Source: Candidatus Latescibacterota bacterium
GTDB taxonomy: Bacteria; Latescibacterota; UBA2968; GCA-2709665
DNA length: 64,000 nucleotides
Assembly: GCA_965222075.1 (NCBI GenBank)
Contig: OZ244937.1
Span: 1,728,001-1,792,000 of the forward strand
Reading direction: 5' to 3'
Part shown: one piece after another, positions 25,119-33,901 of the stretch
How the letters are laid out: every line of letters begins with the position of its first letter
Numbering within the stretch: position 1 is the first letter of the stretch
The notes under the pieces: model-generated
What the model was told of the DNA's origin: nothing
The model's input: only the letters and a program-made list of their open reading frames with translations
Database searches by the model: none
Position numbers and translations under genes: made by a program

Positions 25119-25227
25119 GGGCTCCAGACTTACGTTTGGGTATGTGAGTTGTAAAACAGCGTACCCGTAAGAAAGGAGCCCGAAGTTTTCGCGTGGGTGT
25201 CCTGTGGGGCGGGACCACGGGCGAAAA
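25119..25227. ncRNA. Candidate structured RNA (two tandem hairpins)
   Basis: GGGCTCC/GGAGCCC, CTTAC/GTAAG and GGGTATG/CGTACCC nested stems, then a TTTTCGC/GCGAAAA-closed hairpin. Confidence 0.35.
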
Positions 25228-25253
25228 GGTTTTTGGGTAGATGTCTTGTCAAT

Positions 25254-25421
25254 CGCTTAGAAAACAGGATCTTGGCACACGCAGCGGTATTTTCCTGCGG
25301 TCAAAGCGATGAAAGACCTGGTCAACCGCGGCGATCTGGGGTCGGTGATCATGGCCTACGACGTGTGGCACAAGCCCTATGGCCCGTACAACCGTCCGGA
25401 ATGGATGCTGGACCGCGGCGG
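25254..25421 (+). repeat. Deleted duplicate of the 5' region and an internal part of the Gfo/Idh/MocA gene at 34057
   Basis: CGCTTAGAAAACAGGATCTTG matches 34032-34052; the following ~145 bp closely match 34419-34571. Confidence 0.85.
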
Positions 25422-25442
25422 ACATCCCGGAGAGATTCAGTC

Positions 25443-26885
25443 ATGACGCAAACCGACTTCAATGATGTCGAATGGACCCAGCGCCTGGCGCTGGCTCTCG
25501 CCAGACTGGCGGAAAAGCAAAGGCCTTACGTGGAGGAGTTGGCCGAAGGCCGTCGACGAAACACAGGTGTGGAGAGGGATGACCTGTTCTCCATTCGTCT
25601 CCCTCATCCGTCGGACGACCTACTTCCCCTCTATGCCAAGACGTCTTTCAGCGAAGGACGATACTTCGAGAGGCATTACCGATCTCTCCGGTTTGCATTG
25701 GATGAGGTGCGGAATGTTCTTGGAGAGCATCCCGTGTTCCAGAGGGTACTGGATCCTTCCGACGAGAGGCAGAAATTCTGGGTTCAAGTCGCGAACCACG
25801 GCGGACGTATAGGCCTGCTGGCGATAGTTGGCGGCCTGATGGGGCGCGCAATAGAAGTGCCGGAAGACGGCTTCAGGGTGGCGTCTTCCGAACTGAACGC
25901 ACAGCTCAATTTGAGCCGGGACGAGCCAGCGATGCTTCCTGGCGTTCAAAACACAGGTTACCACGTCGCACTCTTCCACGGTTTGCGATTCAACGAGAAG
26001 ATGAAGATCACGAACGAAATGACTGTCGTGCCCTTTGACCAGACACGCGCTTTCGTAAACGTCAACGTATTCCGGGATATCGCGCCTGATATAATCAAGT
26101 ATAACAACACGAAATCCGTAGGAGCGGTCCTGAAACCCTTTCGATGGAAACCGGAGTTTCTCTCATCAGGCAAGCAATGGGAACCCGAATTGGATTGGGC
26201 CGAGTCGTTTTCCGGCGATGCGCAGGCCTTCGTTGAATTGCTTGCTGTATCCCACGGGGCACCGGTCGTTTACCTGATGGAGATTCCGCACTGCATAGAT
26301 CGATCGACATCCTATCTACTGGGCGAACCGCACTATCATAGCAGCATTAGCTGGGGCCGTTCCGCAAATTCATTCGATAGGTTTCTAAGAACTCAAGACT
26401 TGCGCATGGACGCGTTCGAGGAAGCCAAACGGGTTTTCCAGGAGCGGAACAGCAGCCAGTTTCAAAAATACGCGCCCGTCATATCGAGGCTTGCCGAATC
26501 GCTTGCGCGAAGCGGTCGGTTCAAGTCGGAAGACAGGATACTCGATGTCGCGATTGCCCTGGAGCGGATGTACGGCCTGGACAGCGGAGAAATCACCTTC
26601 AAATTGAAAACGAGAGCGGCCTGTTTTTTGGAACACGATACAAAAGGCCGGATGCAGGTTTTCAAGGATGTCAAAGACTTCTACGATGCGCGGTCGGATA
26701 TCGTTCACGACCGGCAGAAAAAGGCATTGGTCAAGCAGAATATTGAGGCATTCGACAAGGGATTCGAGGTGGCGCGACGGTCGCTATTCAAACTTCTGCA
26801 CAACGGCCCGCCCTCAGACTGGAACGAAATGGTAATCGCGGCGGGAGATCGGGCGACCCGACCGGATCCAGTTGCCGAAGATTGA
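25443..26885 (+). CDS. ApeA-like HEPN domain protein
   Basis: C-terminal LDVAIALERMY...FKLKTRAACFL...FYDARSDIVH (RxxxxH HEPN motif); start at 25443 after GGAGAG. Confidence 0.75.
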   Translation: MTQTDFNDVEWTQRLALALARLAEKQRPYVEELAEGRRRNTGVERDDLFSIRLPHPSDDLLPLYAKTSFSEGRYFERHYRSLRFALDEVRNVLGEHPVFQRVLDPSDERQKFWVQVANHGGRIGLLAIVGGLMGRAIEVPEDGFRVASSELNAQLNLSRDEPAMLPGVQNTGYHVALFHGLRFNEKMKITNEMTVVPFDQTRAFVNVNVFRDIAPDIIKYNNTKSVGAVLKPFRWKPEFLSSGKQWEPELDWAESFSGDAQAFVELLAVSHGAPVVYLMEIPHCIDRSTSYLLGEPHYHSSISWGRSANSFDRFLRTQDLRMDAFEEAKRVFQERNSSQFQKYAPVISRLAESLARSGRFKSEDRILDVAIALERMYGLDSGEITFKLKTRAACFLEHDTKGRMQVFKDVKDFYDARSDIVHDRQKKALVKQNIEAFDKGFEVARRSLFKLLHNGPPSDWNEMVIAAGDRATRPDPVAED

Positions 26886-26967: not shown

Positions 26968-27325
26968 GTGGCGAAGCCTGAAGCACACTACCACGGGCAT
27001 CGGAAGCGTCTTCGCGAACGTTTCCAACAGAGTGGCCTGGCGGGATTCGCAGAGCACGAGGTCATTGAGTTGCTGTTGACCCTGGCCATTCCGCGCCTGG
27101 ACGTGAAGCAGCCCGCCAAGGCACTGCTCAAGCAATTCGGTAGCCTGCAAGGAGTCCTGGATGCTCCGCTAACCGAACTGCAGTCGGTGAAGGGCATCGG
27201 CAAGGTCGCTGCGATCTCCCTGAAAGTCATCCGCGAAGCGGCGACGCTCTACCTGCTGGAGACATCCGAGGAATCACAAGTGCTGCGCGACCCGGAGCGG
27301 CTCAGTGACTTCTGGCGGATTCGGT
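26968..27325 (+). pseudogene. radC: RadC-like protein, N-terminal half only (JAB domain missing)
   Basis: GHRKRLRERF..GL..FAEHEVIELLL..AIPRLDVK..AKALLKQFGSL, HhH VKGIG; truncated by the IS remnant. Confidence 0.8.
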
Positions 27326-27580
27326 CGGGGACTGTTTTGACAACGCGATGTGTGAGAGCTTCTTCGCCACCGTAGAATGCGAACTCCTCGACCGCTACTG
27401 CTTTCGCACTTTCCAGGAGGCGCAACGGATCCTCTTCGAGTATATCTCGAGGGGTGGTACAATCCACATCGCAGACATTCAGCTTTGGGGTACCACTCAC
27501 CCACAACCTACGAGGAAAACCATCAAACATGGGCTTGACACCCAAGCCTAAAACCGTCCACGAAACCGGGGTAACCCTAA
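27326..27580 (+). mobile_element. IS3-family remnant (transposase C-terminus and right end)
   Basis: DNAMCESFFAT.ECELL, frameshifted EGWYNPHRRHSALGYHSP, followed by CCGTCCACGAAACCGGGGTAACCC, an IS3-type terminal repeat. Confidence 0.8.
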
Positions 27581-27615
27581 CTTTACCTTGACTTGTGAGG
27601 AGGAGAAAACAGGCC

Positions 27616-29313
27616 ATGATTAACATCCAACCTCAGTACATCACACTTGCACAATTGTCTCAGAATCGCCTATTTAGAATCCCGCAGTATCAACGGTCAT
27701 ACAGTTGGCACAGTAAGCAACGACAAGATTTGTTCGCGGACATCCAAAAGATATACGACCACGGAAAGGGTCGCTCACATTTCATGGCGACTGTAGTGGG
27801 ACTCAGACGCAAAGCAAAAACAATTGGAACTACAGAGCATCAATTCATAGACATTGTTGATGGACAACAGCGAATCACAACACTCATCCTGTTGCTCAAG
27901 GCTATCGCCGTGGTATGCGACCATTCGGATATAACTGATGCAAAAATCCGTGACGAAATCAACAATTCGTTGATCAAAGACGACAATGCTACCCTTCTGT
28001 TGCTGCAAACCAATCACGACAGCAGCGACTACTTCGCAAATTACCTCAGACGCGGAAGGCATCCGTCTTCAGAGGACGCCAAAACCATCGCCGATTATGA
28101 GCTTCTGGCTGCTATCGAGGAGTGTGAGCAGTTCGTAACTGATTGGCAGAGTGCCAACAATCTTCTTGTCGACCTAGTGACTCTGCTGAAGAATAGGCTG
28201 ACCTTTATTTTGCACGAAATCAGCGACGAATCGCTTGTGTATACCGTGTTCGAGGTCCTTAACAGCCGAGGCCTTGATGTATCATGGTTCGACCGCCTTA
28301 AGAGCATGCTGATGGCCATCGTGTTTGATCGTGCGGGGAATAAGTCTGAGATCATTGACATGGTCCACTCGCTTTGGACGCAAATATACCGCTGTGTAGG
28401 GCTCCGATTGGGTCTGAGTACGGAATCCCTACGTTTTGCCGCTACGCTTCGTCATCTGGTATGCCCAAATCGCCCATTGGGTGAAGAAGAGGCCGCGCTT
28501 ATGCTTTACAATCAGTCCAAAGATGGCGCAAAACAGGTAATTGAGACAACTCAATGGCTAAAAGATGTAACCGTAGCGGTGGATCAATTAGCAGCCAAAC
28601 GTCCGAGGGATGCAGTTACTAGAATTGTGCAAGCTAGAATGGTAGCGACGGCGGTGCATTTGCGTCAAGATTTTACCAAAGATGAAAGAAGCAGGATACT
28701 CCACAGATGGGAAAAAGTAACCTTCCGCATATATGGAATGTTTAGAAAGGACGCACGCTGGGCTGTCGGTGATTACGTACGGCTCGCTTGGAGTATTATG
28801 AACGAGCAGTTATCTTGCGATGAGACACTCAAAAGGTTGGCTGAGATTGGCAGGAAATTTCCAGTTGCTGAAGCAGTAGAGAATCTGCGTGATGCGAATT
28901 GCTACGATTACTGGAGAGAAGAGCTACGTTACTTCCTGCACAAGTACGAGGAACACCTGTCGAAGAAGGCTGGACAGAACTTTGACAACGAGCAATGGCG
29001 TCGCATCTGGGCAAGCAGCTCTGCAAAGTCTATCGAGCACATACGCCCGAAGAATTGGTGGATCTCGCGAGGCAAGGAGTCCGAGGAGGGCAGAATGCAC
29101 GGCCTTGGCAATTTACTCTTACTTCCGCCAGGGCTAAACTCCAAATTGCAAGACAGACCCACACGCAAAAAGGCAGAGGCTTATACTAAGACAGGGCTCC
29201 TAATTACACAAGAGGTTGCCGACCTTGTGTCCACATCTGGCTGGACACTTAAGACAATGAAAGAGCGTGAGAGTCATCTGCTGGAGTGGGCAATCCAAGA
29301 ATGGTCAGACTAG
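27616..29313 (+). CDS. DUF262-DUF1524 (GmrSD-like) modification-dependent restriction protein
   Basis: IPQYQRSYSW, VDGQQRITT, FEVLNSRG..L, C-terminal SIEHIRP...LGNLLLL...N HNH-like motif; lower GC. Confidence 0.88.
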   Translation: MINIQPQYITLAQLSQNRLFRIPQYQRSYSWHSKQRQDLFADIQKIYDHGKGRSHFMATVVGLRRKAKTIGTTEHQFIDIVDGQQRITTLILLLKAIAVVCDHSDITDAKIRDEINNSLIKDDNATLLLLQTNHDSSDYFANYLRRGRHPSSEDAKTIADYELLAAIEECEQFVTDWQSANNLLVDLVTLLKNRLTFILHEISDESLVYTVFEVLNSRGLDVSWFDRLKSMLMAIVFDRAGNKSEIIDMVHSLWTQIYRCVGLRLGLSTESLRFAATLRHLVCPNRPLGEEEAALMLYNQSKDGAKQVIETTQWLKDVTVAVDQLAAKRPRDAVTRIVQARMVATAVHLRQDFTKDERSRILHRWEKVTFRIYGMFRKDARWAVGDYVRLAWSIMNEQLSCDETLKRLAEIGRKFPVAEAVENLRDANCYDYWREELRYFLHKYEEHLSKKAGQNFDNEQWRRIWASSSAKSIEHIRPKNWWISRGKESEEGRMHGLGNLLLLPPGLNSKLQDRPTRKKAEAYTKTGLLITQEVADLVSTSGWTLKTMKERESHLLEWAIQEWSD

Positions 29314-29968
29314 CAGGTTGCTCAAGAGCGGACCACGGTATACTGAAACCAGAACAGTGTTTTCCGTCGGCGTGACCCAATACAGGGGCCTGTGGCGGTC
29401 GCCTGAGGGTCCTCACAGCCCTGACCGATTCGGCCTCGATCCGACGCTATCTGTAGGGGGTAGGGTTGCCGGCGGTGCCCTCAACGAGGGCCCTGCCTCA
29501 GCCGTAGTTCGATTTCGCCACCTGACTTGCCTTGTCGACCGCCTCCCTGCGCCAGAACCGCACGAGTTGGTGGGCCCTGAAGGGTTTCCCCGCGAACGGG
29601 GTTGATCCCGATAGGTGCGGCCCGGCAACCCAACCGCACCGGGAGCCCTGCCGAAGGATCTGCAATCGATCTTCAGGGAGCTTTGCCCGACCCGTGCGTG
29701 CGTCGCCTTGACAGAGGCCCCAAAAGGTGCCTTATTTTACCTATACTCAGTGGATGAATTTCTATACCAAAGTTTTGACCCGCTTACAGAGCTAGGGCTG
29801 AAACTGTAGGTCAGTTTTGAGGCACCCACAGAAGAAGAACAGGCACAGAATGCTGTGGACGAAATCAAAAGTGACTTGTGCGATCTTGGACTTGATGAGG
29901 ACGCATCTGCCAGTTAAAAGCGTTAGGATCTGACAAGATGTATATCTCTCCAAGAAGGAAAACTTCCG

Positions 29969-30736
29969 ATGGGACATGAAAGATCAGGAACACTTCCCCG
30001 TTCGCAGCAATGGCGAAGTGTTGTCGCTCAAATAGCCGAATTTCCAGAAGAAGGCAAAGTTTCAGACGTTGCTAAAGCAACGATCTCTAACGTTCGGAAG
30101 CAGTTCCTTCAGATTCATAGAGATGAAGGTGTAATAGCAGCATTTGGTTTCCTTATAGCGCTTTCGCGCTCTTCCATCTCAGATCAATCTGAACGCCCCT
30201 ATGTAGACCTCTCATCAAATCCCTCGCCTCTCCGAATCTCTGTGAACCTGTCCAAATGGGTCAAAGCTCACACCAATTCTTTTGAATATGCAGATATTGC
30301 ACAGAAAGCGGCCACAGATGCTGTCGGCAAATGGACCCGGCAACAACAGCAGCAACAGACCATCTTCCCTGAATATAGCGATGCTGCTGAAGTGTGGCGC
30401 AAAGCAGGTGACGGTAGAGGGTTTTGTGAAGTGGCACGACTGTTCTTTGCCAAATTTACACAGAGATATCTCAACTATTTTCTTGAGCGAGAAGCTTCGG
30501 CGGTTTTGCCAGGCCTGCAGGAACGTGATGAATTCTCCGATATTTTGGAAGAGCATATCGACACTGTTTCTGATCATGCGTTTGAAACTGCCAGAATTGC
30601 GCAGTCGTTTGCTGCTGGGTGGTACAACAATCACGCTCGTGAGGAAATGCCATCAAATGAAGAAATAGAGCGATTTTTAGAGTTGGCGTTTGGCAAAATC
30701 CGTGAGGAATTGATGCGGGAGAGTGTTCAGATATGA
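29969..30736 (+). CDS. Hypothetical helical protein, putative QueC partner (QatB-like role)
   Basis: 255 aa starting MGHERSGTLP; AAGGA RBS; ATGA overlap with the QueC-like gene. Confidence 0.75.
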   Translation: MGHERSGTLPRSQQWRSVVAQIAEFPEEGKVSDVAKATISNVRKQFLQIHRDEGVIAAFGFLIALSRSSISDQSERPYVDLSSNPSPLRISVNLSKWVKAHTNSFEYADIAQKAATDAVGKWTRQQQQQQTIFPEYSDAAEVWRKAGDGRGFCEVARLFFAKFTQRYLNYFLEREASAVLPGLQERDEFSDILEEHIDTVSDHAFETARIAQSFAAGWYNNHAREEMPSNEEIERFLELAFGKIREELMRESVQI

Positions 30737-32824
30737 CGAAAGACTCTCCCTACATTGTTCTGTGCAATAATGCTGAACGGGATGGCAGTAAGTCTGGAAA
30801 ATCCGTGAAGCAGCTTAACTATCTGGAGGAAGCTACCAAGAACGTCAAGCTCCTGCTTCCTGATTTTGTCAGAGGGGTTTATCATTTACCTGATCGACTA
30901 TTAGATCTTCTTGAGATAGCATCATATGTTTACTGCGCCGACCGAATGACTTCTCGAGGTTCCCGAGATGCAGTAGAATATCACAGTTGGTCACGGACGT
31001 TTGAGTTTGTTATTCGGGTTCGTGATGAAGCTTTTTGGAATAAATCTGAGGTTAAGCAGGCTCTGTCGGATGCGTTGAAATTTGTAACCGGTGATCGAGA
31101 GTATCGGTTCGATTTCCAATCAGGTCATTCAACTTTACCCACCAGTCTTTTTGACAGTGAAGAGTTCAGTGTTGCCGGCGAAAATGATGTTTCTGTCATA
31201 CTTTTCTCAGGGGGGCTTGATTCATTAGCCGGAGCGCTGGAACGGCTGGTAAACACTGACGAACAAGTGTGTTTGGTTAGCCACCAGTCATTTCAGCCGA
31301 GTATCATCAGAACTCAGAAAAGTCTTGCCAATGCTCTCAAATCACTCTTCCCTGATCGAGTACACCACTATCGCTTCAAGTGCAGTTTGAAAGGTATTCG
31401 TCCGCCAGAGGAAACTCAACGGAGCAGATCATTTCTCTACACGAGTGTCGCTTTTGCATTGGCCTATGCATATGAACAGAGGCAGTTCTATGTGTACGAA
31501 AACGGCTTCACCAGCATCAATTTCGCTCGGCGGGAAGATCTTGCTAATGCACGGGCAAGTAGAACAACACATCCTCAAACGATAGGTCTACTTCAAAAGT
31601 TCTTCTCACTATTTGTGGATGAATCCTTCAGTATTGAGATTCCTTTTCTCTGGAAAACCAAAACGGAAGTATTTGAGTCCATCAATGCCAGTGGACATCC
31701 CAAGCTAATTTCCAGCGCTGTATCGTGCAATAAAACTTTTCAAAATTTAGAACAGGCCACCCATTGTGGCCAATGTTTCCAGTGTGTTGACCGTCGGATA
31801 GCAGCATATGCGTCTGAATCTGAAGACTTTGACGATTCAGGGATATATGCTGCTAATTTTATATCGGAAACTATGGTCTGCGGAGAGACAAAAACTACGG
31901 TTGTTGACTATTTGCGCCAATCTCGAAATTTCGCAAAGTGGAATGTTGATTATTTCTACAAAAAGATGATGAACGGTCTTCGGGAGCTGATAGACTGGAT
32001 ACCTGACTGCAGAGATGATACCCAAATTGTTGAGAAAGTTTGGAGTTTATGCAATAGACATGGTAACCAGGTATTTGATGCAATTAAGCGTATGAGAGAT
32101 ATCCATGACAATTTATACCAACCGATAGAGGAAGGTTCGTTACTCAAGTTGATCTCCGAACGCGAATATTTGAAAGAGCCAATCGAACGGTTGGTTTCAT
32201 CTATACGAGAGAAGGTCTCAGACGCTATCCCTGCTATGTTTCGTCAGAATAAGCCTACAAATGAAAATGATCTGAACACAAAAGTTCATGCACTGCTTAA
32301 GACACACTGGCAGGATTTAAGGAGTGAACATCCTGAAGTTTCCTTTGCAGTGGCTCAGGTAGTTCCTGACCACAAAATCGGCACTGATCTACTTATAGAA
32401 TCAAAAGAGTGTGTAGGATTTTACGGGCGAAATAACAGTCTGTAAAAAAATCACTTACGAAATTTGTTATCGTGAATTTTCTTGCTTTTCAGGCCAAACA
32501 TTTAAAGTATCCTCGATGTTTGGTCTCAATGAGCAGCCTCAGGGGCCAAAATGGGATTTGGGAAATGTCGAGCAGGCATTTATGCTGTCTGAAAGCCCTT
32601 TCAAAGCGCCCGCGATTTCCTACACACTCGAATCAAAATACATTCGAGACAGTACAACCCCCAGCGTAGCAACAGATGGAATCGCGGCTGATCTTACGAA
32701 ATATCCTGTGGATTTACACATTTTGTTTCTCGTTTATGATCCCACGCACAGGATTGCTGATGATCAAGAATTCATTAAAGACATCGAAGCAAAAGGCCGC
32801 TGCACTGTCTGTATACTCCGTTGA
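30733..32824 (+). pseudogene. QatC/QueC-like PP-loop enzyme fused to a PD-(D/E)xK nuclease, interrupted by a MITE
   Basis: LDLLEIASYVYCADR..R...W.R, FSGGLDS, QRSRSFLY, SRTTHP, SC..HCGQCFQCVDRR; removing the insert restores PDH...LLIESKYIR...DLTKY..LFLVYDP (619 aa). Confidence 0.85.
32407..32629. mobile_element. Non-autonomous MITE, 223 bp
   Basis: Terminal inverted repeats GAGTGTGTAGGA/TCCTACACACTC (imperfect to 23 bp); 9-bp target duplication GAATCAAAA at 32398-32406 and 32630-32638; no transposase. Confidence 0.92.
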
Positions 32825-32846
32825 GGAGATTAGCCAGGGTAAAGTT

Positions 32847-33023
32847 ATGAATTTGCGAGATCGTTATCGTAGTGTCTTTCTGGGACTTGCCACAGGGGAC
32901 GTGCTGGGAACGACGCTGGAGTTTGCGCATTCAGGACAATTTGAGCCGATTGAAGATATGATTCGTGGTGGTCCATTTGGACTGGAACCCGGTCAATGTA
33001 CAGATGACACCGGGATTGCCTAA
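32847..33023 (+). pseudogene. N-terminal remnant of an ADP-ribosylglycohydrolase
   Basis: DRYRSVFLGLATGDVLG..LEF...GGPFGLEPGQCTDDT, then stop. Confidence 0.8.
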
Positions 33024-33172
33024 CGCTCGTTGTCTCTCAACTTCAGGTGCCTTCCAATACTTCAGAGACACCGGCCGTAGCGTGACAAACGGTCGATCGA
33101 AAGCTAAGCGTTTCACCGCTGACCGGATGAGCCATCCGCTCGGCAGATTGAGTCGTTCGATTGCCGCCTCAA

Positions 33173-33901
33173 TCACGTCTCGCTTCCGTAAGTCGCCATA
33201 TAGCGCCGCTCGACCCGGCCTGAGACCAGCATAGCACCGATTATGATCAACCACAGAAAAAATGCAGTCCCGATCGCAGGGTGAATCATCGTAGCGGCGT
33301 CAAACCAGATGAACTGCATCGCGACGCCCAAGACCGCCGACACCGGCGCTATCTTGCGCAGCGTACCGCCCACCCGCCACTGATACGGGGAGGCGACTAT
33401 CAGCGCGACCCCGGCCGCGGCGAAGCCCGCTTTGCCGGTAATCCACCTGATGCTGGACATCCAATTCAATACGGTGAGGTCGGTCATTGGAGAATCCCCG
33501 GCGGTTGAAACGGGATCCAGCGCCATATGAACCGCTATCAGGATGGCGCATGCACCCGACGCGGCCGTGAAGCCACCCGACACAACGAACAGGTACGGGA
33601 CGAGCGGTGTTGCCCGGCGCCCACGGATGATCCATGTTTGCAGCAATAACCAGCCTGCCGCGAGAAACGACATGCCGGACAGCAGGCGGGCAATTCCCGA
33701 GGTGACGTACATAAGGGGATATTCTGAGACAGCTTGAAGAGACTGCCGCAGCGTTGGCTGGTCGGCGTCGGCAGCCACCCTGGTGTAAACCATTACTACT
33801 GTGAACATCGCAGCAAGCAGCAACAGAACACCTGCCCTACGAGCCGCCCGGTCCGGTGACTGTACCGGCGCGGATGCTGGCGAACTGGTCGCATCGGACA
33901 T
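33173..33901 (-). CDS. Multi-pass membrane protein of unknown function
   Basis: 242 aa, about 6 hydrophobic helices, GGAGG RBS. Confidence 0.7.
   Translation of the reverse strand: MSDATSSPASAPVQSPDRAARRAGVLLLLAAMFTVVMVYTRVAADADQPTLRQSLQAVSEYPLMYVTSGIARLLSGMSFLAAGWLLLQTWIIRGRRATPLVPYLFVVSGGFTAASGACAILIAVHMALDPVSTAGDSPMTDLTVLNWMSSIRWITGKAGFAAAGVALIVASPYQWRVGGTLRKIAPVSAVLGVAMQFIWFDAATMIHPAIGTAFFLWLIIIGAMLVSGRVERRYMATYGSET

Follow-up and report, generated by a model that had tools for sequence, protein, structure and literature searches.

What are the two neighbouring genes at positions 29969–32824, on the + strand, of a stretch of the genome of a Candidatus Latescibacterota bacterium, one coding for a small protein that begins Met-Gly and the other for an enzyme of the QueC family, and what might they do together? 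The stretch, called here the window, is 64,000 nucleotides (nt) long and covers contig positions 1728–1792 kb. We think it likely that the pair is an anti-phage defence system of two genes, built on a core resembling the QatB–QatC (QatBC) core of QatABCD, with its effector fused to the enzyme, and inactivated in this particular genome. A preliminary description of this DNA had reported a 255-amino-acid (aa) Met-Gly partner coupled to a QueC-family enzyme through the tetranucleotide ATGA, and both genes are present as it placed them. The ATGA lies at 30733–30736, the enzyme's ATG occupying 30733–30735 and the partner's TGA 30734–30736. In an open reading frame (ORF) scan, the partner's start codon is the first start 3′ of an in-frame upstream stop.

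The repaired enzyme and its partner

As found, the enzyme ORF (30733–32445) specifies 570 aa, and its final 12 codons belong to a miniature inverted-repeat transposable element (MITE; Table 1) inserted exactly after the codon for Lys558. The inverted ends of the MITE are 83% complementary over 23 nt, and the 9-bp direct repeat that flanks it is perfect. Deleting the MITE and one repeat in silico joins 558 codons to 61 and gives 619 without an internal stop. Four intact homologues from the database match the repaired 619-aa product along its whole length, at 86.8–88.5% identity. This identity, together with the intact frame, argues that the insertion is recent and that the 619-aa reconstruction is right. 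The earlier suggestion that removing the MITE would let the enzyme continue into a PD-(D/E)xK domain is thus borne out, and the intact homologue P0006 matches the Pfam family REase_DpnII-MboI (PF18742) over residues 509–609 with 36.1 bits, the cut-off being 27.

The repaired enzyme is, by its family scores and its set of invariant motifs, a distant member of the QatC branch, and neither QueC nor Cap9. Pfam recognizes the C-terminal half of the QueC domain only (2.3e-7), and TIGR00364, the model for canonical QueC, has a cut-off of 150.3 bits, of which the enzyme reaches 22.6. In PADLOC, where matching used the hidden Markov models (HMMs) of PADLOC-DB 2.0.0 alone, the QatC model covers residues 50–381 at 1.4e-44. 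A profile of 14 homologues finds QatC chains in the PDB (9vlk at 6e-34 and 9zee at 6.6e-30), and canonical QueC at just 0.0093. A canonical QatC that is encoded at a qatABC locus in the same phylum shares 27% identity with the enzyme (E 3e-18).

The motifs by which the preliminary description recognized a QatC-like enzyme are all in place. The PP-loop, SGGLDS, begins at residue 159, and the Zn site consists of Cys332, CGQC at 345 and then Cys351; farther along come NEND (510), PDH (545), IESK (555) and VYDP (590). Across 21 family members, the window copy included, the invariant residues are D58, SGGxDS (159–164), R230, R232, E256-N-G258, R277-T278, H280-P281, P304...T309-K310 and the Zn-site cysteines C332, C345, C348 and C351, then DRR; Thr279 of RTTHP is nearly invariant. 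These residues fit the motif signature of the QatC cluster listed in section 7 of PMC13329287. The pair of Thr residues that is reported to take the place in QatC of the CDG-binding Tyr/Asp of Cap9 (PMC13639016) is also present.

The partner belongs to no Pfam family. Its AlphaFold2 (AF2) model is all-helical (pLDDT 79.3, pTM 0.80), with residues 1–8 below pLDDT 50, a disordered N-terminus. Foldseek ranks QatB (9y01_A) only 14th for this model (E 0.73), yet with by far the best TM-score (0.49/0.56), and the match became clear only in a second look with VIA-align; the model has the QatB fold, and in the complex the QatB placement against a QatC. Kinship between the partner and QatB is therefore detectable by fold and context, not by sequence, since profile–profile comparison, given below, finds no similarity between them. 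In the same phylum, four canonical QatB sequences taken at qatABC loci each start with MGTS, unlike the partner, which begins MGHER.

Relatives of the partner are numerous: a word-indexed search returned 885 proteins at E ≤ 0.001, and an exhaustive search 867 clusters (at 50% identity) at the same threshold, 139 of them at ≤ 1e-30. The start is M/V-G-H in 116 of the 120 best database homologues, and in at least one of the four others (P0130) the start was called wrongly and MGHER follows a little way in. The best 150 of the exhaustive search include 99 full-length representatives, of which 92 begin MGH, the most divergent listed included, and at least two of the seven exceptions (P0252 and P0257) carry MGHER at the aligned position. 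At the 80 loci compared in the next section, every one of the 76 complete N-termini reads (M/V/L)GHxR, 66 of them as GHER; in the other 10, position 4 is I, L, K, V or Q. When 20 partners are aligned, M1, G2, H3, E4, R5, G7, L9, P10 and W15 are invariant. Gly2, which the preliminary description had proposed as the residue modified, is thus conserved in each of these samples. MGH is conserved more strictly here than MGTS in QatB or MGGS in CdnD, as these are reported in PMC13279940, and the invariant His3 may hint at some difference in chemistry.

Where does this tail go? Co-folding residues 1–500 of the window enzyme (21-row alignment) with the partner (20-row alignment) gave ipSAE values of 0.87, 0.87 and 0.82 in three runs, against 0.00 for the best of three controls, and so passed a mark at which 58 of 80 solved complexes, and 2 of 110 mismatched pairs, also pass. 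The runs share at least 77% of their contacts, the pLDDT of the partner is at least 82, and the interface comprises 145–154 contacts. Partner residues 2–11 are predicted to touch enzyme residues 78–84, 120–123, 228, 263, 267–276 and 349–350, segments that make up the WxR region, the stretch into the RTTHP loop and the Zn motif, and the partner's helical body lies against the helical extension of the enzyme at 384–433. The model supports binding, with the N-terminus of the partner predicted to sit at the QueC-type active site, the very outcome that had been looked for in such a co-fold.

A protein docked in this way could also be an inhibitor or antitoxin. Its tail would then plug the enzyme and restrain the nuclease (or TIR domain, see below), no nucleobase would be attached, and the pair would act as an abortive module, set free when the partner is degraded or displaced. 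Such a role would agree with an interface that is large well beyond the tail, with a translational coupling as tight as is typical of toxin–antitoxin pairs, with degraded copies as frequent as a toxic effector might lead one to expect, and with the reported failures to reconstitute QatC chemistry (PMC13279940, PMC13639016). We consider it unlikely, nevertheless, because a PP-loop, a Zn site and catalytic residues of the QatC type that are all invariant are hard to square with an absence of catalysis, and because a plug would need a far less strict conservation of Gly2-His3 than is seen. Furthermore, an N-terminal peptide of QatB carrying the NDG (N-terminal deazaguanylation) modification has been found by liquid chromatography–tandem mass spectrometry (PMC13639016), a finding which favours the modification of Gly2 that we prefer.

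Effector domains, distribution and gene neighbourhoods

The C-terminal 110 residues of the enzyme fit REase_DpnII-MboI, a family of effector domains of conflict systems, and differ from these in being fused onto a QatC-type enzyme. Taken alone, the window fragment 32516–32821 scores 26.8 bits with this family, just below the 27-bit cut-off. Invariant or nearly so in the domain are E511, E532, P545-D546, E556, K558, R561, D576 and Y591-D592, with D546, E556 and K558, fully invariant, as the D...(D/E)xK signature; the pattern of conservation is that of a PD-(D/E)xK nuclease. The domain as modelled by AF2 (pLDDT 84.8) runs alpha-alpha-beta-beta-alpha-beta-alpha-beta, with ExK on the second strand, and Foldseek and a wide VIA-align search with this model returned no clear fold match.

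The nuclease is the most common, and by no means the only, domain found at this end of the enzyme. A contig scan of one genome per species found 215 loci, 80 of which were kept for locus comparisons. At these 80, the end domain is the restriction endonuclease (REase) domain in 66, where the fusion is thus kept, a TIR domain in nine, a PDC-M36A-like domain in one and unassigned in one; in the remaining three it is absent or cut off. Five of the TIR loci were tested with Pfam and match TIR_2 at 1e-12 to 7e-16; the other four were assigned by similarity to L053, whose TIR domain matches the PADLOC model for ThsB at 9e-59. That one core stays constant while its effectors are swapped is the most powerful argument for regarding the core as sensor or regulator. 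The QatBC-like core would thus act as the switch and the fused domain as the arm that kills the cell or cuts DNA, and this C-terminal effector would stand in for the separate QatA and QatD proteins.

QueC-family chemistry also supplies systems that modify DNA with 7-deazaguanine, and a domain from a restriction-endonuclease family, attached to an enzyme of this kind, calls restriction–modification to mind. The enzyme would then mark a nucleic acid or a small molecule with a 7-deazaguanine-type group, and the fused domain would cut DNA that is unmarked. Yet no transglycosylase of the TGT (tRNA-guanine transglycosylase) or DpdA type occurs in the window or is conserved beside the pair, the motifs are those of QatC rather than of canonical QueC (as the TIGR00364 score also indicates), and the replacement of the nuclease by TIR in relatives misfits restriction logic. 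We regard this arrangement as very improbable.

The loci come from Chloroflexota, Latescibacterota, Poribacteria, Planctomycetota, Verrucomicrobiota, Acidobacteriota, Bacteroidota, Bacillota, Actinomycetota and other bacterial phyla, and one comes from a metagenome-assembled genome (MAG) labelled uncultured archaeon. Within the phylum of the window, 5 of 168 genomes have the partner, this one counted. The pairing of the genes, noted at first from the single locus, is kept: at 79 of the 80 loci the gene directly upstream, on the same strand, is that of the partner, and the exception (L063) is cut by the end of its contig. Intact pairs with 78–92% identity to the one in the window exist, for example, at L013 and L016. 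In the 73 loci with a callable enzyme ORF the two genes overlap by 4 bp in 51, by 8 bp in nine and by 1 bp in two. All-against-all clustering of 984 neighbouring ORFs turned up no conserved third gene, the best cluster being present at 7 of 80 loci. The sequence-level tests that were run all favour the minimal two-gene system with a fused nuclease that the preliminary description had put forward.

The neighbours, which it had proposed to check for a location in defence islands, are often defence genes. Among the 20 nearest neighbours at 10 other loci, eight have defence-type domains: DUF499 (two), Eco57I methylase (two), OLD-like ATPase-TOPRIM (two), a cyclic nucleoside monophosphate (cNMP)-binding domain with a Pycsar-type TIR (one) and AbiEi (one). 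DUF499 we presume to be linked to defence. Two more neighbours, one an SF1 helicase and the other a DprA/SLOG protein, are ambiguous, three are housekeeping-like and seven have no Pfam match. Could the pair be selfish all the same, the cargo of mobile elements that serves for addiction or for competition between elements, with no part to play against phages, and here a decaying relic? Its low-GC islet with integrase and RadC-like scars, the strike by the MITE and a patchy distribution suggestive of horizontal transfer would all suit such cargo. Most proven defence systems show the same features, however; the neighbours in other genomes are defence genes, not genes for conjugation or replication, and the nearest characterized relative, Qat, is proven to be anti-phage. 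We hold selfish cargo to be improbable, and a defence role probable.

Proposed chemistry and relation to QatABCD and CBASS

With the QatBC core of QatABCD (structures 9y01/9y02, 9vlk/9vll and 9zee/9zef) the pair has in common a QueC-fold enzyme with N- and C-terminal extensions and the QatC motif set, a partner gene of ~255–260 aa directly upstream, a QatB fold (judged from models) and a flexible Met-Gly tail that is predicted to enter the active site. The differences are as follows. The operon is without QatA (KAP NTPase) or QatD (TatD). The enzyme exceeds QatC by ~160 aa and has a nuclease at its end, where relatives can have TIR. The tail of the partner is MGHER... instead of MGTS, and the partner's sequence has no detectable similarity to QatB. 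The enzyme, 27% identical to canonical QatC, falls below the equivalog cut-off. Because QatA and QatD are missing, the partner stands outside the QatB sequence family and the enzyme is below this cut-off, the pair is not a member of QatABCD; it shares the QatBC core, and is not a new category either. As had been surmised, no defined system is matched in full by PADLOC HMMs: only QatC matches, and the partner has no model. A locus from the same phylum (L090) has qatA and a qatB-like gene at 1234–1794, whose frame begins VMGTSS, is 186 aa long and matches the first 32 positions of the QatB model only; this QatB is either truncated or divergent.

Cap9 and CdnD, of type IV CBASS (a signalling system against phages that is based on cyclic oligonucleotides), follow the same general plan, in which a QueC-family enzyme is reported to work on the N-terminal Gly of a partner encoded by the adjacent gene (10.1101/2025.04.06.647259, PMC13279940). 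For the pair described here, such a reaction is proposed by analogy. Cap9 is described as minimal, ~185 aa long, with the canonical QueC active site retained (PMC13329287). Its partner is a CD-NTase, and the TGT-like Cap10 reads the mark; here the genome has no CD-NTase, there is no TGT nearby and the partner is all-helical. The resemblance to canonical QueC consists of the PP-loop (SGGxDS), the Cys-rich Zn site and the partial Pfam match, and it stops short of the TIGR00364 cut-off.

The absence of QatA, QatD, CD-NTase, TGT and queD/queE genes from the vicinity, also claimed from the outset, was corroborated by searches of the whole genome. The window contains no KAP NTPase of QatA type (genome matches at 494, 1372 and 2745 kb only), no TatD of QatD type (2665 and 128 kb only) and no TGT (3885 and 2606 kb only). 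A QueE-like gene lies ~850 kb from the window, and SMODS CD-NTase has no match anywhere in the genome.

Does the literature already contain such a pair? About 34% only of the QatC cluster sits with qatA or qatD according to PMC13329287, and the remainder leaves room for fused forms of this kind. A survey of 631 qat clusters lists, in the portion of PMC13434339 that we cover, solely rearrangements of the four canonical genes, and the QueC passage of PMC10952713 names just qatABCD and type IV CBASS. In the portions covered of PMC13279940, PMC13376578, PMC13639016, PMC13434339, PMC13329287 and 10.1101/2025.04.06.647259, with supplements outside this scope, there is no fusion of QatC to a nuclease or TIR domain, and the word ‘deazaguanylation’ was met in the covered part of 10.64898/2025.12.03.692087 as a reference-list entry only. 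Literature searches for QueC- or QatC-like fusions with nuclease or TIR domains found no description of the fused pair, which apparently has not been described before.

The homologies, the kept pairing and N-terminus, the swapping of end domains, the predicted complex and the MITE are results of computation; the chemistry, the trigger, the link between modification and effector and the anti-phage role we infer. Removal of Met1 would expose Gly2 on a flexible, near-invariant tail (GHxRxGxLP), and this tail would thread into the QatC-type PP-loop/Zn active site. By analogy with Cap9 and QatC, the PP-loop enzyme would use ATP to adenylate a carboxylate, most likely 7-carboxy-7-deazaguanine from the queuosine pathway of the host, and would join it to the amine of Gly2. 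The state of Gly2, or a change in that state on infection, might then govern the fused effector, with DNA cutting as the output of the nuclease and consumption of NAD+ as that of the TIR domain. For QatBC, the structure has been described and the two proteins alone are reported to give some defence, for which Gly2 of QatB is essential (PMC13279940); the reaction and the killing agent are treated as unsettled in 2026 papers including PMC13279940, PMC13639016 and PMC13434339.

A number of points weigh against reading the pair as a QatBC-like defence system. The family is known from sequence and models alone. For QatC itself the reaction is unsettled: intact-mass analysis is reported to have revealed no modification, and reconstitution in vitro to have failed (PMC13279940, PMC13639016). 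On account of these failures, the chemistry above should be held loosely. That QatC attaches a deazaguanine to QatB, as the preliminary description had it, is no more than partly established; the modified QatB peptide speaks for it. The enzyme scores 178.1 bits with the NCBIfam QatC equivalog model (NF041925), under its 280-bit cut-off. The partner matches no NCBIfam or PADLOC family, the QatB model NF041924 included; a PDB search with its profile, at E up to 10, retrieves no chain, and hhalign against four canonical QatB sequences gives a probability of 0.8%, with a QatB profile that is shallow. The confidence of the co-fold may be in part memory, since QatBC complexes have already been solved. 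A search of the genome, which is 97.6% complete, gave no QueD-type PTPS gene, and this counts against a supply of the presumed substrate; with the QueE-like gene, a tRNA-guanine transglycosylase and two separate canonical QueC genes (209.5 and 195.9 bits) present, such a supply is plausible. Seven of the 80 relatives look degraded, by frameshifts or insertions to which MAG errors may contribute (L054, L065, L073, L078, L081, L082 and L084), and the copy in this genome is itself disrupted.

We suggest tentatively, and with rather less confidence than we would give to an even chance, that the QatB–QatC pair is a portable sensor or switch, in which nucleobase tagging of Gly2, or its reversal on infection, licenses whatever effector is attached: nuclease, TIR or others. 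If this is true, the fused family would reveal the effector logic that is still missing for QatABCD, and protein deazaguanylation, or a related N-terminal conjugation with an MGH acceptor motif of its own, would reach a third, widespread class of immune system. A core that is fused to an explicit effector is a simpler handle on these matters, as its output can be read as DNA cleavage or loss of NAD+, and the invariant GHxRxGxLP tail is a defined acceptor peptide for mass spectrometry. Nor is the family rare, with its 215 loci and 867 partner clusters.

The interrupted copy, its islet and the rest of the genome

The defence gene of the window, on its small islet beside a GmrSD restriction gene, was inactivated recently (Table 1). 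The broken product retains ExK, the catalytic motif, but its last 61 residues are gone, and two strands, two helices and four conserved residues with them; without these the nuclease would presumably be unable to fold. As the MITE cuts the domain directly after ExK, the effector is very probably dead in this genome. The partner gene and the enzyme core are still intact.

Table 1. Coordinates, in the window, of the pair, the inserted element and the features of the islet
Feature	Position	Strand	Remarks
Partner gene, 255 aa	29969..30736	+	QatB-fold helical protein; N-terminus MGHERSG; tail of residues 1–8 predicted disordered
QatC-like enzyme gene, 5′ part, residues 1–558	30733..32406	+	N-terminal extension, PP-loop/Zn QueC core, helical linker and first half of REase_DpnII-MboI, to E556-S-K558
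Target-site duplication, left copy, 9 bp, GAATCAAAA	32398..32406		Codes for Glu-Ser-Lys of the nuclease ExK motif
MITE, 223 bp, 23-nt terminal inverted repeats	32407..32629		Ends the enzyme frame after 12 foreign codons; stop at 32443–32445
Target-site duplication, right copy, GAATCAAAA	32630..32638		9-bp direct repeat
QatC-like enzyme gene, 3′ part, residues 559–619 and stop	32639..32824	+	Remainder of nuclease domain, with conserved R561, D576 and Y591-D592
GmrSD-type gene (type IV restriction, HEC-06-like)	27595..29313	+	Pfam GmrSD_N 2.2e-28 and GmrSD_C 4.8e-18; PADLOC HEC-06 2.5e-49
Left edge of islet, mobile-element scars	26968..27551	+	RadC-like N-terminal fragment and rve_2 integrase fragment
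Right edge of islet, N-terminal stub of ADP-ribosylglycohydrolase, 58 aa, 8.3e-8	32847..33023	+	GC climbs from ~0.46 to 0.58

The inserted element has inverted repeats and a target-site duplication, lacks coding capacity, and is accompanied in the genome by further copies and by a relative that is probably autonomous. One other full copy, 99% identical, is present in the genome. At C1:5235833-5238005 (L003, L004), MITE-like ends flank an ORF of 470 aa with a DDE_5 transposase domain (92.7 bits), and the end pieces of this copy overlap by 16 bases, MITE positions 85–100. It is probably the autonomous parent insertion sequence of the 223-bp element, and the existence of this related copy, with the same kind of ends around a transposase gene, is what identifies the element as a MITE. 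Other members of the enzyme gene family have been struck as well: the gene is split by two insertions of ~1.2 kb in L082 (a Dehalococcoidia MAG) and by one of ~2.1 kb in L065 (a Terriglobia MAG), and these are independent strikes by mobile elements.

The islet extends from ~27.5 to 33 kb and has a guanine-plus-cytosine (GC) fraction of 0.40–0.47, compared with 0.55–0.65 in its flanks. The GmrSD gene is a separate defence gene that shares this islet with the pair. A scan of 29300–33200 for promoters and terminators found no more signals than in shuffled sequence. The GmrSD gene and the partner gene are separated by a spacer of 650 bp, part of which (~110–125 bp, at 29622–29748) recurs at three further sites in the genome with 75–82% identity and is a short dispersed repeat. 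Just to the left of the islet, an ORF at 25197–26885 (562 aa) matches neither a Pfam nor a PADLOC family at E ≤ 0.001. Elsewhere in the genome, at C1:2606226-2607948, a second TGT-family gene (297.7 bits, compared with 526.6 for the main tRNA-guanine transglycosylase) directly adjoins the gene for a QueE-like radical-SAM protein, and these two may be a cluster for the modification of nucleic acids with 7-deazaguanine.

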